A program made the position numbers and the translations under genes. A stretch of DNA of 32,000 nt from Candidatus Saccharimonadota bacterium (GTDB taxonomy: Bacteria > Patescibacteriota > Microgenomatia > UBA1406 > GWC2-37-13), in the NCBI GenBank assembly GCA_001790095.1, contig MGBH01000001.1, forward strand, positions 960,001 through 992,000, read 5' to 3'. Below, piece by piece: positions 2,308 to 32,000 of the stretch (positions are counted from its first letter, which is position 1; each line of letters opens with the position of its first letter). The notes beneath the pieces are model-generated. The model saw only the letters and a list, made by a program, of their open reading frames with translations. It was not told where the DNA came from and did no database searches.

Positions 2308-3093
2308 ATGCTCCCTCTTATTCAGGTATTTAAAACTACCATCCGTGAATATGCGGCATATCGACTCAACTTTATACTTTGGCGGTTAAGGATGTTTTTA
2401 AATCTACTCTTTAATTTTTTTTTGTGGTCTGCGGTCTTTGATACGCGCTCTACGTTTGGACCTTTCCCAAAACACGCTATGATCTCCTATATTTTGTATG
2501 CCAATCTTATCTCCACCTTTGTGCTTGGATCAAGAACTGCAGAGATAGGCGCCTATATAAATGATGGAACAATTATCAATCTTATCCTCAAACCCGTCTC
2601 TTTTTTTAAATACTACTTTGCACGAGACATCGCAGACAAAGTGATGAATATCGTATTTGCTTTACTTGAGCTTGCTATAGTCATCTGGCTTTTTAACGCA
2701 ACGCTTGTTTTACCACAGAACATTATGTTATTTGCCCTTTTTTTCATAAACGGCATTCTTATTTCTTTTTTCATAAACCTTATGCTTTCCTTTATCGGAT
2801 TTTGGACTCCTGAGATATGGGCTCCTCGCTTCTTGTTTATCATGTTGGTATTTTTTATCTCTGGGTCCTACTTTCCCCTTAATCTCCTTCCTCCACCTGT
2901 CTATCATGCTCTTTTAGTTACCCCCTTCCCTTATCTTTTTTTCCTTCCCTCACTTACCCTTATCGGGCAAATAGATGGCGCTGTCATCTTGTTTCAGCTT
3001 TTTTTCTCGTATTTTTGGGTCGTCATACTGTATCATCTAGCCTTATATATGTGGAAAACCGGCAATAAAAATTTTTCATTTTGGGGAAGATAA
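2308..3093 (+). CDS. ABC-2 type transporter permease (uncharacterised ABC system permease component)
   Basis: 261 aa, very hydrophobic, with about 6 predicted TM helices. It is the first gene of a three-gene unit ending in an ABC ATPase. The family call rests on architecture and context, not on a motif. Confidence 0.65.
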   Translation: MLPLIQVFKTTIREYAAYRLNFILWRLRMFLNLLFNFFLWSAVFDTRSTFGPFPKHAMISYILYANLISTFVLGSRTAEIGAYINDGTIINLILKPVSFFKYYFARDIADKVMNIVFALLELAIVIWLFNATLVLPQNIMLFALFFINGILISFFINLMLSFIGFWTPEIWAPRFLFIMLVFFISGSYFPLNLLPPPVYHALLVTPFPYLFFLPSLTLIGQIDGAVILFQLFFSYFWVVILYHLALYMWKTGNKNFSFWGR

Positions 3094-3098
3094 TACTA

Positions 3099-3188
3099 AT
3101 GACCAATTATCAATTATCAATCAAATTCCAATGATTCAATAATTAATGGAAATTCATTGAAAATTGCAAAACTGAAAATTGAAAATTT
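3099..3188 (+). repeat. AT-rich palindromic element, family A (atgaccaatt...caattatcaatca...ttgaaaattgaaaatt); intergenic copy
   Basis: It shares its start (atgaccaatt) and internal blocks (atcaattatcaatcaaattcc[a/g]atgat) with the copy at 4959-5040, and its heptad tail (ttgaaaatt units) with the other copies. Confidence 0.85.
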
Positions 3189-3984
3189 ATTTATGAATGG
3201 TTTAAAAAAGAATATAAGGATCTTTTATCTTCTTTCCCTCAATGCCCTGAAAATTACCTTTCAGGCCCGAATCGGTGGGATATTTTTTCTTATTGGTAAA
3301 ATCATCCGTGTATTTTTTATTTTTTTATTCTTGAGTCTTATCTTCAGTCGTACCCGAATCATTAAGGGGTATACATTTGACCAAATTCTGCTTTTTTATC
3401 TTACCTTTAATATCATCGATACATTGAGTCAGATCCTGTACCGCGAAGTGTACCGATTTCGTCCACTGGTTGTGAGCGGCGGACTTGATATGGTTCTTCT
3501 TAAGCCGTTTCATCCTTTTGTCCGAGTGCTTTTGGGTGGTATTGATTACTTAGATATTGTTTTAATAGTTCCCTATATTTTATTGACTCTGGGAATTTAT
3601 ATAAAAATGGGTTCATTTCATTGGGGAAATATTATCTTGTATGTAGCTCTTCTTGGCAACTCGATGATCGTTGTTACTGCGTTTCACATCATCGTGCTTG
3701 CTTTTGGAATCATGACCACAGAGGTCGATCATACAATCATGATCTATCGAGATCTTATATCGATGGGAAGGTTTCCTTTGGAGATCTATAAAGAACCCAT
3801 AAGGGCAGTATTTACCTTTATTATTCCAATCGGAGTCATGATGAATGTGCCTGCACAAGCCCTCCTGGGGACTCTTTCCTGGAGGGGCGTCTTTTCTGCT
3901 TTTCTGATATCATTGGGGATGTTATATATCTCTCTTATATTTTGGAAATATGCACTTAAAAAATACCAAAGTTGGGGCGGTTAA
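3157..3984 (+). CDS. ABC-2 type transporter permease, second component
   Basis: 275 aa polytopic membrane protein between the first permease and the ATPase. The first 12 codons (MKIAKLKIENLF) are encoded by the AT-rich repeat at 3099-3188, so the true start is probably the ATG at 3193 (MNGLKKNIRIF...). Confidence 0.65.
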   Translation: MKIAKLKIENLFMNGLKKNIRIFYLLSLNALKITFQARIGGIFFLIGKIIRVFFIFLFLSLIFSRTRIIKGYTFDQILLFYLTFNIIDTLSQILYREVYRFRPLVVSGGLDMVLLKPFHPFVRVLLGGIDYLDIVLIVPYILLTLGIYIKMGSFHWGNIILYVALLGNSMIVVTAFHIIVLAFGIMTTEVDHTIMIYRDLISMGRFPLEIYKEPIRAVFTFIIPIGVMMNVPAQALLGTLSWRGVFSAFLISLGMLYISLIFWKYALKKYQSWGG

Positions 3985-3993
3985 ATAATAATT

Positions 3994-4962
3994 ATGATAT
4001 CGGTCAAAGATCTTACTAAAATTTACAAAGTCCATGAGCGCCAGGGAAATTTTATCAAAGATGTGTTATTTCGCAAATTCAAACGGGTTGAGGCGGTACG
4101 AGAGGTCTCTTTTTCCTTGGAACGCAATGAACTTGTCGGCTTCATAGGCCCCAATGGCGCCGGAAAAACCACAACGCTGAAGATACTAAGCGGTATACTT
4201 TACCCTACTTCTGGGCAGGTGTTTGTTGATGGATTTACTCCTTTTGAAAAAAAACCCGCATTTCTTAAACAGATTGCCTTTGTCATGGGACAGCGAAATC
4301 AGCTCATCTGGGATCTTCCGACAAGAGACAGTTTACAACTTCAGAAAACGATATATGAAGTCTCCGATCTTGAATATAAAAATAATGTACAGGAACTCAC
4401 CTCTCTTCTTGATTGTCAAAATCTGCTGGACAAACCGGTAAAAACGCTTTCTCTGGGTGAGAGAATGAAGATGGAGCTAGTAATGGGGCTCCTCTATAGG
4501 CCACGCATCGTGTTTTTCGATGAGCCAACCATTGGTCTTGATATATTTTCCCAAAGTGCAATAAGGGACTTTATCAAGGAGTATCAATCCGAAACTAAGT
4601 CAACCATCATATTAACAAGCCATTATCTTGAAGATGTTAAACGTCTTGCTAAAAGATTAATCATCATCAATAAAGGGTCAATAGTATATAATGGAAGTTT
4701 GAGTAATATTATTGAACAATATTCGCTTGAAAAGCACGTCAGAGTAACCCTTGACAAAACAGTAAATGAGACAGAAATCCGTAGAATCAATGTGCCATTT
4801 ATGTATACACACCCCAAAATCACCTTTAGCATAAAAAGAGGTGTTTTACCGGAGAAAATCAAGCTTATTACTCAAACTCTTCCTTTTTCAGATCTAACTG
4901 TTGAAGATGAAACGATTGAAGACATCATCAAAAGCTTCTTTGAAGAACAGAGAAACAAATGA
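3994..4962 (+). CDS. ABC transporter ATP-binding protein
   Basis: Walker A GPNGAGKTT, Q-loop MGQRNQ, ABC signature LSLGERMKM, Walker B IVFFDEPTIGLD, H-loop TSHY. The TGA stop lies inside the first bases of the repeat copy at 4959-5040. Confidence 0.92.
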   Translation: MISVKDLTKIYKVHERQGNFIKDVLFRKFKRVEAVREVSFSLERNELVGFIGPNGAGKTTTLKILSGILYPTSGQVFVDGFTPFEKKPAFLKQIAFVMGQRNQLIWDLPTRDSLQLQKTIYEVSDLEYKNNVQELTSLLDCQNLLDKPVKTLSLGERMKMELVMGLLYRPRIVFFDEPTIGLDIFSQSAIRDFIKEYQSETKSTIILTSHYLEDVKRLAKRLIIINKGSIVYNGSLSNIIEQYSLEKHVRVTLDKTVNETEIRRINVPFMYTHPKITFSIKRGVLPEKIKLITQTLPFSDLTVEDETIEDIIKSFFEEQRNK

Positions 4963-5040
4963 CCAATTTTCAATGATCAATTATCAATCAAATTCCGATG
5001 ATAATTGATTGAAAATCGGAAATTGATAATTAATAATTAA
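4959..5040 (+). repeat. Family A AT-rich palindromic element; intergenic copy supplying the TGA stop of the ABC ATPase
   Basis: atgaccaattttcaatgatcaattatcaatcaaattccgatgataattgattgaaaatcggaaattgataatt. The two arms are imperfect reverse complements. Confidence 0.85.
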
Positions 5041-5056
5041 AGCGTATAATTTTAGA

Positions 5057-5526: not shown

Positions 5527-6633
5527 ATGTCAAAACTCAAATTAGCCTATTTTGGCACGCCCATCTTTTCAGCCTACCTCCTTGAAAAAATCATCAAAGA
5601 CAAAGAGTTATCCGGTATCATACAGCTTGTCGTAACACAACCTGATAAGTTAGTTGGGAGAAAGCAAATTCTGACAAAGTCGCCCGTAAAAATAGTTGCA
5701 CAAACACATAAGATTGAAGTTTTGGATGATTCGGAAAGTGAAACGCTACTGCAAAAGATCAAGGGACTTGATCTTGCCATTGTGTATGCTTACGGTTTTA
5801 AAAAACTTCTTCCCCTCTCACTTCTCAAAGCCCCAAAAATCAAAATTAAAGATACGGGGACAGGTTTTATCAACATCCACCCTTCTCTTCTTCCTTTATA
5901 TCGCGGCTCCTCTCCTATCGCATACCCCATCTTGCTTGGAGAAAAAATAACTGGCGTATCGCTGTTTGTAATGGATGAACAGATGGATCATGGACCGCTT
6001 ATCGTACAAAAAAAAGTAGAAATAAGATTAAACGAAACAAGAAGCGATATGGAATCAAAATTGACTGATCTTGGGTTTGAAATACTGAAAAAACTTCTCA
6101 ATTCTTTAATCCGTGAATCCGTTAATTCATTAATTTTCACTCCTCAGAATCATTCCCTTGCCACCCGTGCCCCCTATATGATACGAGAAGATGGATATAT
6201 TGAGTTTACAACTCTCAAGAAAGCACTGAACAATGAGCCAATTGCTTTTAAAGAATTACCGCAGATTATCCAAAACTACCTTGATCATTATCCCCAGACA
6301 GATCGAGAACTAGTCTCAAAATACAAATTAGGAAATTATAGTCTGGATTCCCGCCTCCGCGGGAATGACATTTTTTCCAATTCTTCTCAGATTATCTATG
6401 ACTTTTGGAGAGGCATTTCGCCCTGGCCTGGTGTGTGGACCCTGTTAGAACCTCCGAGGTTTGACACGGTCCAGAAAGATAGAATCTCGGAGATTAAATG
6501 GAAAGGCCCAAAACGGCTCAAAATAACTGAAGTATCTTTTGTGGACAATATACTACAAATCAAAAAGGTCCAGCTTGAAGGAAAAAAAGAAGTGGACTTT
6601 ACAACCTTCCAAAAGGCGTATGGTTTGTTATAA
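5527..6633 (+). CDS. fmt: Methionyl-tRNA formyltransferase with an extended C-terminal domain
   Basis: N-terminal formyltransferase fold (LAYFGTP.FS, VVTQPDK, NIHPSLLPLYRGSSPI, VMDEQMDHGP). At 368 aa it is longer than typical Fmt. The extra segment contains an in-frame palindromic repeat at 6337-6370 encoding YSLDSRLRGNDI. Confidence 0.85.
   Translation: MSKLKLAYFGTPIFSAYLLEKIIKDKELSGIIQLVVTQPDKLVGRKQILTKSPVKIVAQTHKIEVLDDSESETLLQKIKGLDLAIVYAYGFKKLLPLSLLKAPKIKIKDTGTGFINIHPSLLPLYRGSSPIAYPILLGEKITGVSLFVMDEQMDHGPLIVQKKVEIRLNETRSDMESKLTDLGFEILKKLLNSLIRESVNSLIFTPQNHSLATRAPYMIREDGYIEFTTLKKALNNEPIAFKELPQIIQNYLDHYPQTDRELVSKYKLGNYSLDSRLRGNDIFSNSSQIIYDFWRGISPWPGVWTLLEPPRFDTVQKDRISEIKWKGPKRLKITEVSFVDNILQIKKVQLEGKKEVDFTTFQKAYGLL
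6337..6370 (-). repeat. GC-core palindromic element, family B (TGTCATYCCCGY-loop-RCGGGRATCCAGWCTATAAT), inside fmt in frame
   Basis: tatagtctggattcccgcctccgcgggaatgaca matches the copy at 13514-13545 at 29 of 32 aligned positions (13514-13545 spans 32 nt). The stem is attcccgc/gcgggaat. Confidence 0.9.
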
Positions 6634-6667: not shown

Positions 6668-7411
6668 ATGGGTGAAACTGCTGCTGTTCCCGAACCAACA
6701 CAACCTGTTACATTTGAGCAACTAAAAGGCGCTTTTAACGTCTTTAAAGACGATTATAAGATCGTCAATCATCCCAACACGCCAGTCAATACTCCATTCA
6801 ATGTTCCAAATCAACCCGATGCACATGGACGTCAATACAACCTCACTCTCATCCCAGAAGAAATGACAGAAAAAGAATATTTAAGTCATTTAGAAGCACC
6901 CGAAGGCATAGTTCTTTTCATCGGATGCATGGATCGTGATGCAGCACTACCCGCTTATCAAGAACTTCAAAAACAATATTCTGGCAAGAAGATTATATAT
7001 CTTACCGTAGCCGGTGGTGTTGTGCAAAAGGAGCAGCAACGTAAAGACGCGATGAGAACAATAATTACTCATGCATCACAGCATCAAGACCATATTGAAG
7101 CGGTTATTGCAACAGATCATGACCATACCTGCGGCAAAGTAAAAGCAGACCTTGCTGGAACTCCTCTTGCACAGGTTATAGGTATCGAACTTCCTGAAGT
7201 TGGAAACCCTGCCCCACCAGCCGAACAAGCTGAAATGAAATCTCTTATTGCAGGTGGTATTACAGAGCTTGGATTACGTAAGTTATTCCCTGGAAAAGTA
7301 CTTCCAGGTCTCGTTGCAATAAATAGACAAGGCAACGCTCATATTGATACAAATTTTCAAGGAGTACAACCAAAAACAATCAATCAAGTTGTAGAACAAA
7401 AAATAAGTTAA
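6668..7411 (+). CDS. Hypothetical protein with a CxDxD...AGG...HxCG pattern, possibly a beta-carbonic-anhydrase-like fold
   Basis: 247 aa with a Pro/Asn/Thr-rich N-terminus. The core reads IGCMDRDAAL ... YLTVAGGVV ... VIATDHDHTCGKV. By eye this parallels the CMDxR / RNAGG / HHTDCG blocks of one beta-CA clade. Not verified by search. Confidence 0.55.
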   Translation: MGETAAVPEPTQPVTFEQLKGAFNVFKDDYKIVNHPNTPVNTPFNVPNQPDAHGRQYNLTLIPEEMTEKEYLSHLEAPEGIVLFIGCMDRDAALPAYQELQKQYSGKKIIYLTVAGGVVQKEQQRKDAMRTIITHASQHQDHIEAVIATDHDHTCGKVKADLAGTPLAQVIGIELPEVGNPAPPAEQAEMKSLIAGGITELGLRKLFPGKVLPGLVAINRQGNAHIDTNFQGVQPKTINQVVEQKIS

Positions 7412-8661
7412 AGTCTATTTTCTGTTATCAATTTCCTCACATTCTCCATGAGGCGCTCCATAACCCACAAGTTGTGATATGTCGCAAGCGTACATCCTAA
7501 TATCTCCTTTTGCTTGAAAAGATGATGAAGATAGGCTTTTGTATAGTTTTTACACACCTGACACCCACATCCTTCATTTATTGACGTCAAGTCGGCCTTA
7601 TATATGCTTTTGTTAATATCAATCTGCGTTATAGAAGATTTCAAATTTGAACTGTCTATTTGAGTTTTGATATCTGAGATTTGATATATCGTTCCCATCC
7701 GCGCCAACCGTGTCGGCTCAACACAGTCAAACGTATCAATACCATACTTCACTAAATCGATTATGTCGTCAATATGGCCAACGCCAAGCAAATGTACAGG
7801 TTTATCTACAGGTAAATAGGGCGCAACCCATCTCACCTGATCCCTCATCTCCTCCTTGGTTTCTCCAACAGACACCCCACCTATTGCCACCCCATCAACA
7901 TCTTGGGATGTTACGAATTTAGCAGATGCGATGCGTAGGTCCTCATACGTGCCTCCCTGGATGATTCCATAGAGATACTGTTGGTTAATTTCCATTTTCC
8001 AATTTTCATTTTTCAATGAATTTTCAATTTTCAATTGATCATTGAATCTTAGATTTTGATTGATAATTGGTAACTGTAAATTGGTTTTTTTGTATGAAAT
8101 ACACCTTTTTAACCATTCATGCGTCCGCTTCATTGCTTTTTCTGCATATTCATGAGTCGCAGGATAATAAGTACATTCATCAAACGCCATCATAAGATCT
8201 GCTCCAATTGCTTTTTGATACTCCATAGATTTTTCCGGGGTAAACTCAATGATTTCTCCATCATAGACCGATCGAAACCTTACTCCATCCTCTGATATCT
8301 TAAGCATAAGAGGATCCTCATCCCCTCTCACATGAGCCTTGCGTTTTGAACTTTGTGCAAGAGAAAAAACCTGAAAACCACCGGAATCAGACATAAGAGG
8401 AATCTCGTATTTGGCAAGATTATGAATTCCTCCAACCTTTTGAAGCAACTCCATTCCCGGGTGAGTGATGAGATGATAAGTATTTACAAATGACATCTGT
8501 ATGCCTATTTCTTTTATAAAAGGTTGAGGCAGTGCTTTGATCGTACCTTTTGTCCCAACAGGTACAAATGCGGGGGTTAAAACAGTACCGTGGGCTGTGG
8601 TGATGGTCCCTGTACGAGATGCGGATTTTTTTGATCGTTTGTTTACTGTATAAAAAGACAT
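7408..8661 (-). CDS. tgt: Queuine/preQ1 tRNA-ribosyltransferase (tRNA-guanine transglycosylase) carrying an in-frame repeat-derived insert
   Basis: TPAFVPVGT, MSDSGGFQV, MAFDEC, GIIQGG, VAIGGVSVGE, LLGVG, and the zinc site CGCQVCKNYTKAYLHHL. There is an extra segment of about 30 aa (LQLPIINQNLRFNDQLKIENSLKNENWKME) just before the GIIQGG block. Confidence 0.93.
   Translation of the reverse strand: MSFYTVNKRSKKSASRTGTITTAHGTVLTPAFVPVGTKGTIKALPQPFIKEIGIQMSFVNTYHLITHPGMELLQKVGGIHNLAKYEIPLMSDSGGFQVFSLAQSSKRKAHVRGDEDPLMLKISEDGVRFRSVYDGEIIEFTPEKSMEYQKAIGADLMMAFDECTYYPATHEYAEKAMKRTHEWLKRCISYKKTNLQLPIINQNLRFNDQLKIENSLKNENWKMEINQQYLYGIIQGGTYEDLRIASAKFVTSQDVDGVAIGGVSVGETKEEMRDQVRWVAPYLPVDKPVHLLGVGHIDDIIDLVKYGIDTFDCVEPTRLARMGTIYQISDIKTQIDSSNLKSSITQIDINKSIYKADLTSINEGCGCQVCKNYTKAYLHHLFKQKEILGCTLATYHNLWVMERLMENVRKLITENRL
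7986..8073 (-). repeat. Family A element inside tgt, in frame
   Basis: The reverse complement reads taccaattatcaatcaaaatctaagattcaatgatcaattgaaaattgaaaattcattgaaaaatgaaaattggaaaatgg. It is colinear with the copy at 3099-3188. Confidence 0.8.
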
Positions 8662-12948: not shown

Positions 12949-13023
12949 ATTTTCATGATAGAAGATTTGTACTAAAGAATCAAGAGAGTTAAATCTGTCA
13001 TCCCCATAAGTATTGAAATGGTA

Positions 13024-13053
13024 GCATGGATTCCCGCCTTTGCGGGAATAACG
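13024..13053 (-). repeat. Family B palindromic element (short form)
   Basis: gcatggattcccgcctttgcgggaataacg. It has the same attcccgc/gcgggaat hairpin. Confidence 0.8.
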
Positions 13054-13231: not shown

Positions 13232-13516
13232 ATGTTTGAAAAAACGTTTTATGTTTACATCCTATCTTCTCAAAAAAATGGAACACTGTATGTTGGAGTA
13301 ACAAACAATCTTATGAAGCGCATTTGGGAACATAAAAATAAATTGGTTGATGGGTTTACTAAAAAATATGAAATTCACCATTTGGTTTACTATGAAATAC
13401 ATGATAATCCAGAATCGGCAATACAGCGAGAAAAACAAATAAAGAAATGGAATCGTCTATGGAAAATCAGATTGATAGAAGAAAAGAATCCTGAGTGGAA
13501 AGATTTGTATATTTAG
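13232..13516 (+). CDS. Stand-alone GIY-YIG nuclease superfamily protein (UPF0213/COG2827-like)
   Basis: FYVYILSSQKNGTLYVGVTNNLMKRIWEHK ... GFTKKYEIHHLVYYE ... AIQREKQIKKW matches the GIY-(10)-YVG, R..EH and E..IK blocks. The track start at 13175 reads through a repeat. The ATG at 13232 follows a TATAAT supplied by the repeat end. Confidence 0.85.
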   Translation: MFEKTFYVYILSSQKNGTLYVGVTNNLMKRIWEHKNKLVDGFTKKYEIHHLVYYEIHDNPESAIQREKQIKKWNRLWKIRLIEEKNPEWKDLYI

Positions 13517-13545
13517 TCTGGATTCCCGCCTTCGCGGGAATGACA
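13514..13545 (-). repeat. Family B palindromic element immediately downstream of the GIY-YIG gene, in inverted orientation; contains its TAG stop
   Basis: tagtctggattcccgccttcgcgggaatgaca. Confidence 0.9.
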
Positions 13546-16379: not shown

Positions 16380-17399
16380 TTAGATCGCCCTAAGTTTTTT
16401 TAATAGCTTTAAATTTTCATCATATAATCCACCCGTTACACTCAGCGATGCTTTGATTGGTAGATGTGGATTGTATCCTACCAAATCAACATATGATGGT
16501 TCAAAGTCGTCAACCGTTTTAAAAGAATGATTGAAATGTATCGTGGGAAATACTTTTGGTTTTCTTTTTAGCTGTTCTTGGACTTGGGTTACGTGCAGTT
16601 CATAGATGTGCACATCCCCAAACGTATGGATAAATTCTCCGGGTTCATATCCTGTTACTTTTGCCAGAATCAATGCAAGTAAAGCATAGCTTGCGATATT
16701 AAAAGGTACTCCTAAAAATATGTCAGCACTTCGCTGATAAAGCTGAAGGCTTAATTTACCATCAATGATATTGATCTGGTACATGTTGTGACATATGGGA
16801 AAGCGGGATGCATCTTTTTTGAGAGCCATCGTATAAAGATACTCGGGATTCCATGAGTTGACGATAAGATTATGCGCTGCTGGGTCTTCTTTAATCTCCT
16901 GAATTACCCATTTAAGCTGATCAATAGTCCTGGGTTTACCCTGTAAATCTTTAGATTTACATGGCCAACGTCTCCACATCTCACCATAAATTCTTGGAAG
17001 CTCTCCCCATTTCTTTGCAAACTTTTCATCAGCTGCAATATTGTTTATAAATTCCTCTTTTGATAATAATTCTTTATACTTTATACTTTCTACTTTCTTC
17101 TTACTCTTTTCCACGTAAATCCTATACGGATAATCGTCCCATATATGTACATTATTATCGACTAAATATTTAATATTTAACATACCCTTCATAAACCAAT
17201 TCAATTCATGCAGTACTCCTTTCCAATACACCTTTTTAGTGGTCAGAAGAGGAAAGCCCTGGGATAAATCAAATCGTATCTGGCGCCCAAACACGCTCTG
17301 AGACACATCTCCTGTACCCCTGTCAACTTTTTTGACTCCATGATCAAGTATGTCTTGAAGAAGATCAAGATATTGATATTCGGGGTGTCTGTACTTCAT
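16380..17399 (-). CDS. thyA: Thymidylate synthase (ThyA type, long form with a small-domain insert)
   Basis: DRGTG, FPLLTTKK, LHELNWF, nucleophile block FPICHNMYQ, YQRSADIFLGVPFNIASYALL (the Asn indicates dUMP specificity), GDVHIYELH. Confidence 0.95.
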   Translation of the reverse strand: MKYRHPEYQYLDLLQDILDHGVKKVDRGTGDVSQSVFGRQIRFDLSQGFPLLTTKKVYWKGVLHELNWFMKGMLNIKYLVDNNVHIWDDYPYRIYVEKSKKKVESIKYKELLSKEEFINNIAADEKFAKKWGELPRIYGEMWRRWPCKSKDLQGKPRTIDQLKWVIQEIKEDPAAHNLIVNSWNPEYLYTMALKKDASRFPICHNMYQINIIDGKLSLQLYQRSADIFLGVPFNIASYALLALILAKVTGYEPGEFIHTFGDVHIYELHVTQVQEQLKRKPKVFPTIHFNHSFKTVDDFEPSYVDLVGYNPHLPIKASLSVTGGLYDENLKLLKKLRAI

Positions 17400-19354: not shown

Positions 19355-20194
19355 TTACACGACTCCCATCTCTTCCAGATCAACCCCGCCATCCTTATCG
19401 AAAGTAACTTCATAGATCGGTAAAGCCGCGCCTAAACATTTTAACGTTTCCATAAGATGGGCCTCTCCAGTCTCTGAAAGCACCTCATACAGATACTCAT
19501 CATCACACCCCTGAGGCAATGTGACTGCTTTGTTTTCATAGAGAGACTTTGCCAGCAATCTGTGGCGTTTGTTTACCAGATCTGTATGATACACAAATAC
19601 CTGTGTGTGTTTGCGATGACCCTCAACCAGTGCATCATACTGAGGATATATACTATATTCTCCTTTTACCAAAACAACCGCTCCCTCTATGTGATCTTCT
19701 CTAAGGATCTGTTCTTTTGCTCCTTGTATTTTCGCTTTGGTAAAGGTATTCGTAACAAATTGAAGATCTTCTGAAGTAACACCATAGTCTTTTGGGGTAA
19801 GTAGTATTTGGCTCATGTGCCCGCATCCTTCAAATACGTTCCCCTTTTGAGTATGGATATCTGTGTGAAATCCTAGGTTGTTTTCTCCTCCTATGATTTC
19901 AACAAGTGTGCGATAGGCTTTGTCTTTATCAAGCTCAAACCCGTACTCATTTGATGCTGCGATGATAAGAACAAGCTCTCCTGCGTCAGCGCCCGGTATA
20001 GCCAGGCCCGGCAGATTAGGAGTATCCCCATATCTCCCATCTATGCAGCGACTTCTATACTGCCCGTCTTCCTTTACTTCATACTTGTTTTCCCGTGCCA
20101 GATGAAAAATCTGCTCTTTGGAAAGTAAGATCTTTTGCATAGATTTCACATTATACCTAAATAAGTTGGCCGGTAAACTGCGTTTCGTTGGCAA
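19355..20194 (-). CDS. Hypothetical protein with CIDGR ... PGADAG ... HTD ... GCGH motifs, co-transcribed with the Dcd-fold gene
   Basis: 279 aa and soluble. It lies 24 nt upstream of the Dcd-like gene on the same strand. A likely alternative start is the ATG at 20140 (MQKILLSKEQ), which has a TATAAT 9 nt upstream. Confidence 0.6.
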   Translation of the reverse strand: MPTKRSLPANLFRYNVKSMQKILLSKEQIFHLARENKYEVKEDGQYRSRCIDGRYGDTPNLPGLAIPGADAGELVLIIAASNEYGFELDKDKAYRTLVEIIGGENNLGFHTDIHTQKGNVFEGCGHMSQILLTPKDYGVTSEDLQFVTNTFTKAKIQGAKEQILREDHIEGAVVLVKGEYSIYPQYDALVEGHRKHTQVFVYHTDLVNKRHRLLAKSLYENKAVTLPQGCDDEYLYEVLSETGEAHLMETLKCLGAALPIYEVTFDKDGGVDLEEMGVV

Positions 20195-27293: not shown

Positions 27294-27385
27294 ATAAGTA
27301 GTAAGTAGAAAGTAGCAAGTATAAAGTTTTTAAAAAAAGAGTGATCGTCTATACTTACTACTTTATACCTTATACTAACTACTAG
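27294..27385. repeat. Family C AGTA-word inverted repeat downstream of rpsR
   Basis: aagtagtaagta (27296-27307) is the perfect reverse complement of tacttactactt (27352-27363). Further agtataaag/ctttatac pairing is present. Confidence 0.6.
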
Positions 27386-30678: not shown

Positions 30679-32000
30679 ATGTTTAAAAAGTTCCCCCTTA
30701 TTTTTTTGTGTGTACTTCTCTTTTATACCCGCTTTGTTGGTCTAGACTGGGGGTTGCCATACCCTATGCATCCTGATGAACGCAATATGGCCGTCGCAGT
30801 TCAGCAACTTACCTGTAAAGGGTTGGGGCCAATCGCCTATCTCCAACCGCTAACCGAATGTCTGAATCCTCACTTTTTTGCGTATGGACAGTTTCCGATC
30901 TATCTTGCATATTTTGGCATACTCATATTCCATTTTTTGCAAGGCATAAAAGCTCCTCCTGGTTTTATTGAGGCTACGATGGCTTTGCGAACAATCTCGG
31001 CATTAGCCTCAGTAGCAAATGCTTTTGTATTGTTTCGTATCATCGAATTTTCAATTTTAGATTTTCAATTTTCAAACAAATCTCATTCTAAAAATTCAAA
31101 AAATAAAAAATTGAATGAAAATTGGTTATTGAAAATTGGTTCATTCCTGGTCTTGATATTCTCTCCTTACTTCATCCAATTCTCCCATTTTGGTACCACC
31201 GAGTCACTTCTTATGCTCTTTTATTCTTTCATCATTTACGAATGCATCAAGCTCATTCAGAACAAAAACCTAAACACTAACTACTATCTACTAGCTACTA
31301 TTTCAGGAATTGCAATCGCCACAAAAGTTTCCTCCGTACTGTTTTTAGCCGTACCTGTCGTGTTTATAGGTATAAAAACAGGTTTGAGAAGTCTAACTGT
31401 ACTCTTTACTCTTTCCCGCTTTATTCTTCTTACCATGCTCGTCTCTATCATCTTTTCTCCCCACAACATCATCTCCCTTGAAGAGTTTGCGGGCTCGATG
31501 AACTATGAATCAGCGGTGGCAATCGGAAGCTATGTTGCCTTTTACACCAAACAGTTTGTCAATGCTCCCCCCCTTATATTTCAACTGACTAAGATTTTCC
31601 CTTTTGTATTGGGTTGGCCTCAATTTATATTGTCTGTCCTTGGTCTTCTTGTCTTATCATGGAGAGATAAAAGGATAAACGTGCTTCGATTTGCTTTTAT
31701 CGTTTTTTTTCTTCCGAATGCGTTTGTATTTGCAAAATGGACACGATTTATGACGCCTATTTTCCCGATTTTAAGCTTATTTACAATTCTCACACTTTGC
31801 AAACTTCTTAAAGTTTTCCAAAACAAATTCTCAATTATCAATGATCAATTTTCAATCATTTATCGAAAACTGAAAATTGAACGTTGGAGGTGTATTGAAA
31901 ATTGGAAATTGAAAATTGATCATTCTATAGTTTTTATATTAATCACTATAGTAATTCTCCCCGGTATCGCATACCTTTCTATCTACCAAACACCTGATGT
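30679..32000 (+). CDS. GT39/ArnT/PMT-like polytopic membrane glycosyltransferase; partial, continuing beyond the window end
   Basis: Absent from the track because it has no stop in the window. My translation from the ATG at 30679 gives MFKKFPLIFLCVLLFYTRFVGLDWGLPYPMHPDERNMAVA..., followed by many TM helices. Two in-frame repeat inserts encode IEFSILDFQFSNKSHSKNSKNKKLNENWLLKIGS and FSIINDQFSIIYRKLKIERWRCIENWKLKIDH. Confidence 0.8.
   Translation, partial: MFKKFPLIFLCVLLFYTRFVGLDWGLPYPMHPDERNMAVAVQQLTCKGLGPIAYLQPLTECLNPHFFAYGQFPIYLAYFGILIFHFLQGIKAPPGFIEATMALRTISALASVANAFVLFRIIEFSILDFQFSNKSHSKNSKNKKLNENWLLKIGSFLVLIFSPYFIQFSHFGTTESLLMLFYSFIIYECIKLIQNKNLNTNYYLLATISGIAIATKVSSVLFLAVPVVFIGIKTGLRSLTVLFTLSRFILLTMLVSIIFSPHNIISLEEFAGSMNYESAVAIGSYVAFYTKQFVNAPPLIFQLTKIFPFVLGWPQFILSVLGLLVLSWRDKRINVLRFAFIVFFLPNAFVFAKWTRFMTPIFPILSLFTILTLCKLLKVFQNKFSIINDQFSIIYRKLKIERWRCIENWKLKIDHSIVFILITIVILPGIAYLSIYQTPD
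31045..31142 (-). repeat. Family A element inside the GT39 gene, in frame, antisense orientation relative to the gene
   Basis: The reverse complement starts tgaaccaattttcaataacc and ends ttgaaaattgaaaatctaaaattgaaaattc. This matches the start and tail of the 3099 and 4959 copies. Confidence 0.75.
31827..31924 (+). repeat. Family A element inside the GT39 gene, in frame, sense orientation
   Basis: The segment caattatcaatgatcaattttcaatca ... ctgaaaattga ... ttgaaaattggaaattgaaaattgatca compares with caattttcaatgatcaattatcaatca at 4965-4990. Confidence 0.8.

Follow-up and report, generated by a model that had tools for sequence, protein, structure and literature searches.

In-frame copies of a dispersed palindromic repeat in a membrane glycosyltransferase and other enzymes of a Roizmanbacterium

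The glycosyltransferase gene

The window, which is the whole stretch of 32,000 nucleotides analysed here, ends within the gene of a membrane glycosyltransferase (GT). The first 440 codons are located at 30679..32000 on the plus strand. They start with ATG at 30679 and stay open in a single frame to the window end, passing through two repeat-derived inserts, as the earlier note had described. The full gene (contig L004, 7737-9911) was called on a 61.8-kb contig as one uninterrupted gene encoding a membrane protein of 724 aa. A disruption beyond the window, which the earlier note had considered, was checked for; the complete gene is intact, and all 35 family-invariant residues of the homologue alignment are present. 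A complete 724-aa gene was called on each of the two contigs covering the locus, L004 and L005, so the inserts are not an assembly artefact. Contig L001 mismatches the window over its first 512 nt and was used as a continuation of the gene from nt 513 on. The neighbouring 713-aa gene is present as an identical copy in 39 blocks of the assembly collection. Roizmanbacteria predominate among the roughly 1184 homologues of the GT, and the host organism is a Roizmanbacterium.

The protein consists of a glycosyltransferase part with GT-C fold, similar to ArnT/PMT_2, and a C-terminal DUF192 domain (E 5e-12) encoded beyond the window. DUF192 is the only Pfam domain recovered, with no match to PMT (PF02366) or PMT_2 (PF13231) at E<=1, and the PMT_2 match is still absent from a construct lacking the inserts. 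PF13231 is found in about half of the homologues and PF02366 in one, and some homologues are named "glycosyltransferase family 39" by NCBI. The DE motif D33-E34 is invariant in the family and located in the first extracytoplasmic loop of the GT-C fold, as in GT39 enzymes. Foldseek searches with the structural model returned exclusively GT-C enzymes, headed by ArnT (GT83) and PglB, while Pmt1, Pmt2 and Pmt4 appear only at ranks 16-19 with a TM of 0.37. A MIR domain is absent, the C-terminus being DUF192 instead. The earlier designation as GT39 is weakly founded: some homologues carry this name and the fold is GT-C, but the protein has no PMT or PMT_2 match of its own and PMTs are not its nearest structures. 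The enzyme is best termed "GT-C, ArnT/PMT_2-like", with "GT39" being a label of its homologues only.

Family A: architecture and distribution

The two inserts belong to family A, an imperfect palindrome of ~100-125 nt that is AT-rich and dispersed. Units of 7 nt, CAATTTT/CAATTAT, make up the left arm and recur inverted as AAAATTG in the right arm, while the centre is variable. The first copy (31043..31139, assigned to the minus strand, weakly so in a near-palindrome) occupies site 1 of the GT, residues ~122-155, and encodes EFSILDFQFSNKSHSKNSKNKKLNENWLLKIGS. The second (31823..31927, plus strand) occupies site 2, residues ~383-416, and encodes KFSIINDQFSIIYRKLKIERWRCIENWKLKIDH. Both peptides are found in the GT frame verbatim as previously quoted. 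A third copy (7985..8092, minus strand; nhmmer E 2e-10) is located in frame in tgt, where residues ~190-226 read TNLQLPIINQNLRFNDQLKIENSLKNENWKMEIN. Two further copies on the plus strand are intergenic. The one at 3096..3190 is situated between two ABC-2 permease genes and begins 2 nt past the upstream stop codon. The one at 4956..5041 includes the TGA stop of an ABC ATPase gene within its first bases, with 16 nt left between its end and the following ATG.

All copies in the window were recovered at E 1e-7 to 5e-13 by a profile built from 72 copies, all from other genomes. In the GT, the site-1 copy scored E 4.6e-9 on the minus and 3.6e-7 on the plus strand, and the site-2 copy E 4.8e-13. A two-part family pattern yielded four matches in the window and none in 100 shuffles. 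These independent profile and pattern matches confirm that the two GT inserts are one repeat family. Their proposed opposite orientations are less certain. With the profile from other genomes, the site-1 copy (starting at 31045 in the earlier note) reaches 35.8 bits in the minus orientation versus 29.6 in the plus orientation. For the site-2 copy (31827), the values are 48.6 bits plus versus 44.1 minus; a window-only profile gave 35.8 versus 18.6. Direct pairwise scores of the two copies in the two orientations are 43 and 45. The claim is weak because family A is near-palindromic. In addition, the insert peptides are colinear (FSIxDxQFS ... ENWxLKI), so identical arm frames are used in both.

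Family A is not specific to this genome but common in Patescibacteria. The consensus occurs in about 100 loci (at least 118 by pattern in GTDB genomes) of many Patescibacteria lineages, and it is the same in genomes ranging from 32 to 61% GC. The usual site is a short intergenic spacer that is filled by the copy. With inverted arms, 6-7 copies per 43 kb here and 120 full-length copies elsewhere, family A is a dispersed multicopy repeat.

Several searches addressed structure and mobility. The site-2 copy folds into a predicted RNA hairpin of -23.6 kcal/mol (z -2.8). RNAalifold found no consensus structure across 50 copies, and the right arm of a copy is no more complementary to its own left arm than the right arms of other copies are (mean 20.1 vs 21.9). 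Due to this absence of arm covariation, the idea of a structurally selected hairpin was set aside. Over the whole window, no Rfam family reached the gathering score, with sub-threshold miRNA-like hairpins at 3050-3250 only, and no intrinsic terminators were detected in or near family A copies. Terminal inverted repeats are present, as about 60 aligned copies show the ends AATTTTCAATT ... AATTGAAAATT. The ends are often TAATTTTC...GAAAATTA, in keeping with a possible TA target, and T/A flanks are frequent, albeit not universal. No target-site duplication came to light, and neither did an autonomous transposase partner, so family A is at most a putative mobile element. An arrangement of left half, ORF and right half was absent from about 0.9 Mb, a small sample. 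A pattern scan of IMG/VR gave no match, leaving a phage vector without evidence. TIGR arrays were dismissed as an identity for family A, whose copies are single and dispersed.

Reading frames of genic and intergenic copies

The four genic copies of this lineage, located in the GT (twice), the queuine tRNA-ribosyltransferase (TGT) and a thioredoxin reductase (TrxR), are each open in one of six frames, and this is always the frame of the host gene. The two intergenic copies in the window have stops in every frame. The earlier proposal that either strand of the element offers at least one stop-free frame is therefore not upheld. Among the 120 full-length copies recovered from other genomes, all six frames contain stops in 98 (82%), and the openness per frame is 3.5%, compared with 2.7% in shuffled sequences. 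These values speak against an element designed for coding neutrality, so the selection suggested in the earlier note is not supported. That note had also reasoned that open frames would be coincidental if most copies were closed. Most copies are indeed closed, but the open frames are not coincidental: the chance of all four genic copies being open in the host frame is about 1.5e-6. Taken with the closed majority and the low openness, the open genic frames represent a filtered or edited subset. Full-length copies are genic in four of six cases in this lineage and in one of 120 elsewhere (Fisher p 7e-6).

An example of such editing would be a TGA that reads TGG or TGC, giving "ENW" or "ENC".

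Insertion sites in the host proteins

Both GT inserts are situated between hydrophobic or helical segments according to sequence and AlphaFold2 (AF2) model, in agreement with the earlier topology. The site-1 loop comprises 47 aa, compared with a minimum of 26 among homologues, and the site-2 loop 68 aa, compared with a mode of 33. No other loops of the family vary as much in length. The AF2 model (pLDDT 90, pTM 0.92) retains the GT-C fold, and its helices 96-131/142-160 and 361-398/403-437 traverse the inserts. The model suggests that the inserts form helical-hairpin extensions of the flanking TM helices. Across the family, the net charge is +3.3 at site 1 and +2.0 at site 2, and these loops alternate with non-positive loops in which the DE motif and further invariant residues are found. 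By the positive-inside rule, the inserts are most likely on the cytoplasmic side.

The tgt gene (7408..8661, minus strand) is intact and encodes 417 aa with a PF01702 match of E 3e-124. Identical copies of the protein are indexed across the assembly collection, in 36 blocks that include NCBI GCA_001790155.1. Its insert comprises 38 residues where solved TGT structures have 8, and the alignment to these structures is interrupted exactly there (query 188-225 vs chain 171-178). The TrxR gene is located just left of the window; its in-frame copy accounts for an insert of 44 residues compared with 3 in PDB 5uth. In TGT and TrxR, the alignments to solved structures are interrupted at the insert alone, and GT, TGT and TrxR are all full-length with their conserved domains present. 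The element is thus tolerated in loops of unrelated proteins, as had been supposed. ThyA was considered as a further host and rejected, since it is a natural long form of the L. casei type.

Frame preservation suggests that the inserts are translated. Tryptic peptides that would derive from or span the inserts are FSIINDQFSIIYR and LNENWLLK for the GT, TNLQLPIINQNLR and IENSLK for TGT, and AALINFQLSR, SNYQSNSNDQLK and TENFDMDYQTATSVR for TrxR.

Origin and persistence of the in-frame copies

The account as a whole that we consider probable is that family A is selfish or spacer DNA tolerated in frame in proteins, in the manner of Rickettsia palindromic elements (RPEs). In its normal state, the stop-rich element would fill short spacers between Patescibacteria genes. 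In the Roizmanbacterium lineage, copies would have become fixed inside the coding sequences of the GT (twice), TGT and TrxR. A survival filter would have retained those with a length that is a multiple of three, a frame open in the host gene and a position in a length-tolerant loop. The surviving copies would then be translated into segments of ~33 residues rich in K, N, E, I, L, F and S. In the GT, the two arms of a copy would encode two helices, prolonging the flanking TM helices as a hairpin that is most likely cytoplasmic and away from the catalytic face.

The in-frame copies probably originated by insertion. As the nearest GT homologues are only about 60% identical, the term insertion refers to a comparison with distant homologues, among which the inserts in GT and TGT are patchily distributed. 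A metagenome scan yielded 80 orthologous GT loci, none above about 53% tblastn identity, and no close empty site. In the orthologue L124, about 60% identical, the positions of both inserts match to the codon, and so does the frame.

Comparison of orthologue pairs revealed high conservation of the arms at third codon positions. Identity at these positions reaches 0.83 in the arms of the GT copies and, for the right arm in TGT, 0.94/0.76; the remainder of the genes gives 0.38-0.44 and the loops of the GT elements 0.35. Identical codons number 27/31 (14.8 +/- 2.6 expected) and, in TGT, 17/19 and 14/17. Conservation that is strongest at synonymous positions points to causes acting on nucleotides rather than on the peptide, and it is not expected of a passively tolerated relic. 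One possible reading, which we hold only tentatively, is that the arm 7-mers carry a Patescibacteria-wide DNA or RNA function, for instance as protein-binding arrays, outward-facing promoter-like boxes or spacer signals, and are selected even within genes. The excess of identical codons, the single consensus across genomes of widely different GC content and the proximity of intergenic copies to stop and start codons are in line with such a function. Boxes resembling TTGAAA-N17-GAxAAT point outward from the arms, and in one promoter match of 11/12 the -35 box is an arm. However, promoter-like matches are not enriched (11 vs 8.3 +/- 2.4 in shuffles), the orientation relative to flanking genes is unbiased (33:22), arms within a copy do not covary, RNAalifold finds no consensus structure and no binding protein is known. 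Moreover, orthologous copies resemble each other no more than they resemble paralogous or other non-orthologous copies, a pattern that recurrent insertion or gene conversion would also fit. It is doubtful that family A is a selected CAATTTT 7-mer signal throughout Patescibacteria, with GT, TGT and TrxR dual-coded for a peptide hairpin and a nucleic-acid signal. A dual use of this kind is compatible with the tolerance of spacer DNA proposed above, to which it adds a function.

The lack of closer resemblance between orthologous copies also speaks for a scenario of recurrent recent insertion, in which independent copies entered the same permissive hot spots and the arms are near the consensus because they are young. 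This scenario is unlikely. The GT and TGT loops do hold other repeat families depending on the lineage, with peptides of the WIPAFAGMT, RFRIKSGMT, NFKFQISN and KIQNSKVQVK types, and in P0002, which is equally close (61.5% identical), the insert at site 2 is absent and that at site 1 is a different one. Yet this genome and L124 have both inserts in common, with codon and frame unchanged. At site 1, the two have equal length, align over 103 nt without gaps and share the truncated right end ..AAAATTGGTTCATT, and the loop identity of 52% exceeds the ~32% expected by chance, a rough composition-based estimate. With a per-frame openness of 3.5%, repeated successful entries would also be rare.

Retention of the inserts in frame over about 40% protein divergence could alternatively reflect an exapted peptide module, as the earlier note had suggested, with hairpins selected for a role in the protein, for example as cytoplasmic interaction surfaces. 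The arm peptides are 64% identical compared with 25% for the loop, the helices are ordered in the AF2 model and peptides resembling KIENSLKxENxKLK occur in several TGT orthologues. Selection on the peptide does not predict that synonymous positions are the most conserved, minimal loops suffice in many orthologues and the same peptide type occurs in unrelated enzymes, making this explanation improbable. CPR rRNA genes carry intervening sequences that are removed; that the GT segments are likewise excised from the transcript, or that the gene is a pseudogene or an assembly artefact, is very improbable given the intact 724-aa ORF with all invariant residues, the same sequence in independent assemblies, the open host frame of all genic copies in a family of such low openness and the fact that an excised segment would need no frame preservation.

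Comparison with known repeats and significance

RPEs (Ogata et al. 2000) are palindromic repeats found both in intergenic regions and in frame in intact, unrelated housekeeping genes, as summarised in the review PMC10969869. They are the closest analogue of family A, which shares with them the in-frame copies in intact unrelated genes at variable-loop sites. Both are dispersed palindromes of ~100-150 bp, the encoded segments are placed compatibly with the fold and the hosts belong to reduced-genome, host-dependent groups. The differences concern host, composition and coding capacity. RPEs belong to one genus, Rickettsia, whereas family A occurs in Patescibacteria, an unrelated clade, and is probably unrelated in sequence; its consensus spans the superphylum and its arms consist of 7-nt subrepeats that are synonymously conserved. 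Each RPE is said to contain an ORF for a conserved peptide (PMC10969869), while family A is mostly intergenic and closed. Host and AT-rich 7-mer composition set it apart from RPE families 1-10, and it is not classed as a member.

Other repeat classes share fewer features with family A. MITEs such as ERIC, Correia/NEMIS, RUP and Nezha are likewise about 100 bp long, multicopy and mostly intergenic with inverted-repeat ends, and they occasionally insert in frame (PMC2229807, PMC3184786, PMC10969869), but the repeat array of family A extends over the whole element, beyond the termini, and about 0.9 Mb contained no autonomous IS sharing its ends. PARCELs resemble family A as dyad-symmetric DNA that encodes amphipathic segments, often in membrane-associated proteins, and shows signs of horizontal spread. 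They are tandem arrays of 25-residue motifs in ORFs of unknown function, whereas family A is mostly non-coding and its genic copies, which show no tandem array, sit singly in the loops of conserved enzymes. REP/BIME sequences are also intergenic palindromes near gene ends. REPs are 20-40 bp long, G+C-rich, marked by a GTAG/CGTC tag and linked to RAYT transposases (PMC3733652), while family A is ~100 nt long and AT-rich, without such a tag and with a stem that lacks covariation. A literature search by keyword and sequence word returned no account of family A or of in-frame repeats in CPR.

In-frame palindromic repeats have so far been documented mainly in Rickettsia. Their occurrence in a second, unrelated group of host-dependent bacteria with reduced genomes suggests that protein loops in small genomes are extended by spacer or selfish DNA through a general route. 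The CPR case covers several loops, several repeat families and essential enzymes. Such inserts inflate and fragment alignments of CPR proteins, an example being the 724-aa GT without a glycosyltransferase Pfam match of its own, and they may partly explain why CPR proteins are rich in insertions.

Reading frame and identity of the host glycosyltransferase

On the plus strand, the membrane glycosyltransferase gene (GT) opens with ATG 30679, and its frame runs uninterrupted for 440 codons to the end of the window. An earlier note had described two copies of family A, a near-palindromic repeat of ~100 nt, as read in frame within this gene, and both quoted peptides are found verbatim in frame from ATG 30679. 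Disruption of the gene beyond the window, which could have undermined this reading, is not seen: on a 61.8-kb contig whose sequence agrees fully with the window, the complete gene is a single intact ORF of 724 aa with a DUF192 tail. Nucleotides 1-512 of a low-coverage ENA contig with the 3' part of the gene mismatch the window, and are probably a chimeric assembly at a repeat-rich region.

Its ~1184 homologues come largely from Candidatus Roizmanbacteria; PF13231 (PMT_2) is present in roughly half of them, and some have a C-terminal DUF192. The protein itself gave no Pfam glycosyltransferase match, with the inserts either kept or removed. A confident AlphaFold model (116 homologues; pLDDT 90, pTM 0.92) has GT-C enzymes as its best matches; ArnT and PglB lead the ranking, and yeast PMTs come much further down. 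We call the host protein a putative GT-C, ArnT/PMT_2-like glycosyltransferase. The designation "GT39" is used by NCBI for some homologues ("glycosyltransferase family 39") but is just a borrowed label. The stretch that joins the GT domain to DUF192 (residues ~590-632, within 7737-8600 of the matching contig L004), SNSKLQITNDKQITNNKIQNPQLDFSNYQTTNYQLQTTNYHLL, looks repeat-derived, and similar linkers are present in the orthologues L124 and P0002 from other genomes.

Family A copies in the window and across genomes

A family A profile trained solely on copies from other genomes recovered all copies in the window, plus two immediately to its left, one full and one partial. The two-part pattern of the family gave four matches in the window and none in 100 shuffles. 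Chance similarity in AT-rich sequence thus does not account for the repeats, which are real. In the GT gene, the profile places site 1 at 31043-31139 (E 4.6e-9; repeat search 31045-31142) and site 2 at 31823-31927 (E 4.8e-13; repeat search 31827-31924). Two intergenic copies lie at 3096-3188 (repeat search 3092-3200; also given as 3096-3190) and 4957-5041 (repeat search 4957-5040; also given as 4956-5041). A further copy resides in tgt, the gene of queuine tRNA-ribosyltransferase (TGT), at 7996-8084 (repeat search 7982-8090). In the repeat search, the GT copies pair with each other and with those at 3092-3200, 4957-5040 and 7982-8090, both directly and inverted. The thioredoxin reductase (TrxR) gene, on a contig reaching left of the window (L002), contains a copy at 19993-20098, which lies 1.3 kb beyond the left end of the window and gives the peptide LINFQLSRSNYQSNSNDQLKTENSLKIAKLKTENFDMD.

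The pattern CAATTWTCAWTCA-N15-45-TTGAAAATTG was found at at least 118 loci in a one-genome-per-species (GTDB) collection. Among the 80 listed by title, 50 are from named Patescibacteria, including Saccharibacteria, Parcubacteria/Paceibacterota, Microgenomates groups and Peribacteria, and the remainder include loci with other labels. Among the loci retrieved, 99 hold a canonical copy with a near-identical consensus at a locus GC of 32 to 61%. A scan of IMG/VR with the pattern gave no matches, Rfam has no corresponding family, and a literature search found no paper describing it. Family A, which is spread across Patescibacteria, appears to be undescribed to date.

In other genomes, family A typically makes up the spacer between codirectional genes, with median distances of 3 nt to the stop codon upstream and 9.5 nt to the following start codon, and it shows no orientation bias relative to genes. 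Both intergenic copies in the window share this placement. The 3096-3190 copy begins 2 nt past the upstream stop codon, and the TGA stop of an ABC ATPase gene falls at the very beginning of the 4956-5041 copy. The right arm of this second copy also forms the -35 box of a TTGATA-16-TATAAT match (11/12) ending 7 nt before ATG 5057, which, if used, would give a near-leaderless start.

Open frames and palindrome architecture

The earlier note suggested that the element might be selected for coding neutrality. This is wrong: among 120 full-length copies in other genomes, 98 are interrupted by stops in every one of the six frames, and single-frame openness among these 120 is 3.5% compared to 2.7% in shuffles. 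The ATTG-type arm has a TGA every 7 nt, closing all three frames within three units. Genic copies have TGG or TGC at the TGA position, giving "ENW" or "ENC" in the insert peptides. In the studied genome, neither intergenic copy has an open frame among its six, and every genic copy, four in total, has a single open one, that of its host. For four of four to be open in the host frame, the chance is near 1.5e-6. Family A is therefore not designed to be read, and the genic copies are a selected subset. Most of all, the agreement of all four with the host frame argues that these copies are probably translated and not removed. Genic copies make up 4/6 in this genome versus 1/120 elsewhere (p 7e-6), which marks in-frame residence as a trait of the studied lineage.

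Family A is an imperfect palindrome with CAATTTT/CAATTAT 7-mers in the left arm and AAAATTG 7-mers in the right arm, so its strand is poorly defined. The antisense and sense orientations assigned to the GT copies agree with the marginally better strand (minus 35.8 versus plus 29.6 bits for the 31045 copy; plus 48.6 versus minus 44.1 bits for the 31827 copy) but carry little meaning given such near-equal scores; a direct comparison of one copy with the other gives 43 and 45 in the two orientations. Since either orientation places the CAAT-type arm first and the ATTG-type arm second, the insert peptides are colinear (FSI..(F/Q)FS ... ENW.LKI). RNAalifold found no consensus structure among the copies, and arm complementarity is no greater within a copy than between arms of different copies. 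Thus, the conserved part is words, not a stem.

Inserts in loops of unrelated proteins

Across 116 aligned GT family members, the site 1 stretch is 47 aa in the studied protein (minimum 26, median 34), and the site 2 stretch of 68 aa is the maximum (mode 33). At the same two places, other Roizmanbacteria have different repeat-derived peptides (WIPAFAGMT, RFRIKSGMT, NFKFQISN, KIQNSKVQVK), identifying both as insertion hot spots. The alignment of TGT to solved TGT structures breaks at residue 187 and restarts at 226, with 38 in-frame residues in place of 8; among orthologues this loop spans 21 to 76 aa, with family-A-like peptides in several. In TrxR, 44 in-frame residues replace 3 in PDB 5uth. 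The proposed tolerance in loops of unrelated proteins is thereby borne out at length-variable or short loops.

In the GT model, helices 96-131 and 142-160 traverse insert 1 around a low-confidence turn (132-141), and helices 361-398 and 403-437 traverse insert 2. Each palindrome arm would lengthen one flanking TM helix, and each insert would be a hairpin of two extended TM helices. Net loop charge alternates across the GT family. The values are +1.2 for the N-terminus, +3.3 for site 1, then +0.9, +2.2 and +1.8, and +2.0 for site 2, while intervening loops are not positive (DE loop -1.1, invariant SPYFIQFSHFGTTES loop 0, another -0.4). Under an N-in, C-out, 11-TM reading, this alternation would place both inserts in the cytoplasm, with the catalytic face on the other side of the membrane, but the short, net positive loops at invariant K216 and K353/R356 do not fit.

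Two other repeat types were observed. A G+C-rich short palindrome, GGATTCCCGCCTYCGCGGGAATGAC, occurs at gene edges (13022-13053, 13514-13545) and at 6339-6370, in frame in fmt (5527-6633) as YSLDSRLRGNDIF between Formyl_trans_N and Formyl_trans_C; WIPAFAGMT and RFRIKSGMT, which fill both GT hot spots in other Roizmanbacteria, are peptides of this type. TACTTT units at 17072-17105 and 27295-27327 are 88-93% complementary and 10 kb apart. One arm lies within thyA (16380-17399), where an insert was rejected, thyA being of the natural long L. casei-type form.

Conservation inside genes

The closest GT orthologues, L124 and P0002, are equidistant at ~61% identity. In L124, family A occupies both sites, with codon positions and reading frame shared, and the site 1 copies align over 34 codons ungapped with a common truncated right end. 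In P0002, the site 2 insert is absent and another repeat fills site 1. The L124 gene (2938-5463), from another Roizmanbacterium, holds three extra G+C-rich in-frame inserts, e.g., ETRDQRLVLPAGSQNQQPKTDNKPLT and VSAMIKRQVATTQGIPTARRLAGLLGGRALTGNELLTESALLF.

Between the GT and L124 inserts, 27 of 31 identical degenerate amino acids use the same codon, where the remainder of the gene predicts 14.8 +/- 2.6. For TGT and two orthologues, the values are 17/19 and 14/17 (expected 8.1 and 6.6). Identity at third codon positions reaches 0.83 for the arms in GT and 0.94/0.76 for the right arm in TGT, compared to 0.38-0.44 for the host genes and 0.35 for the loops of the GT elements. Yet orthologous copies resemble each other no more than they resemble non-orthologous ones. 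Genic copies have thus stayed as near the family consensus as intergenic ones, even though synonymous sites in the host genes around them are saturated. Constraint on nucleotide words, gene conversion and recurrent insertion into hot spots are three possible causes of this nucleotide-level conservation inside genes.

Rickettsia palindromic elements (RPEs) are palindromic repeats in frame in unrelated genes and compatible with the fold (PMC10969869). Family A shows the same behaviour, without being a member. To MITEs it bears a partial resemblance, in inverted ends and multiple copies, and with PARCELs it shares the palindromic-coding idea, whereas tandem 25-residue arrays are a PARCEL feature (PMC2996958). 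REPs differ in size, composition and tags. The observation of in-frame copies is real and beyond chance; insert translation, topology and mode of origin are inferred. Family A in genes is an RPE-like phenomenon in a new clade.
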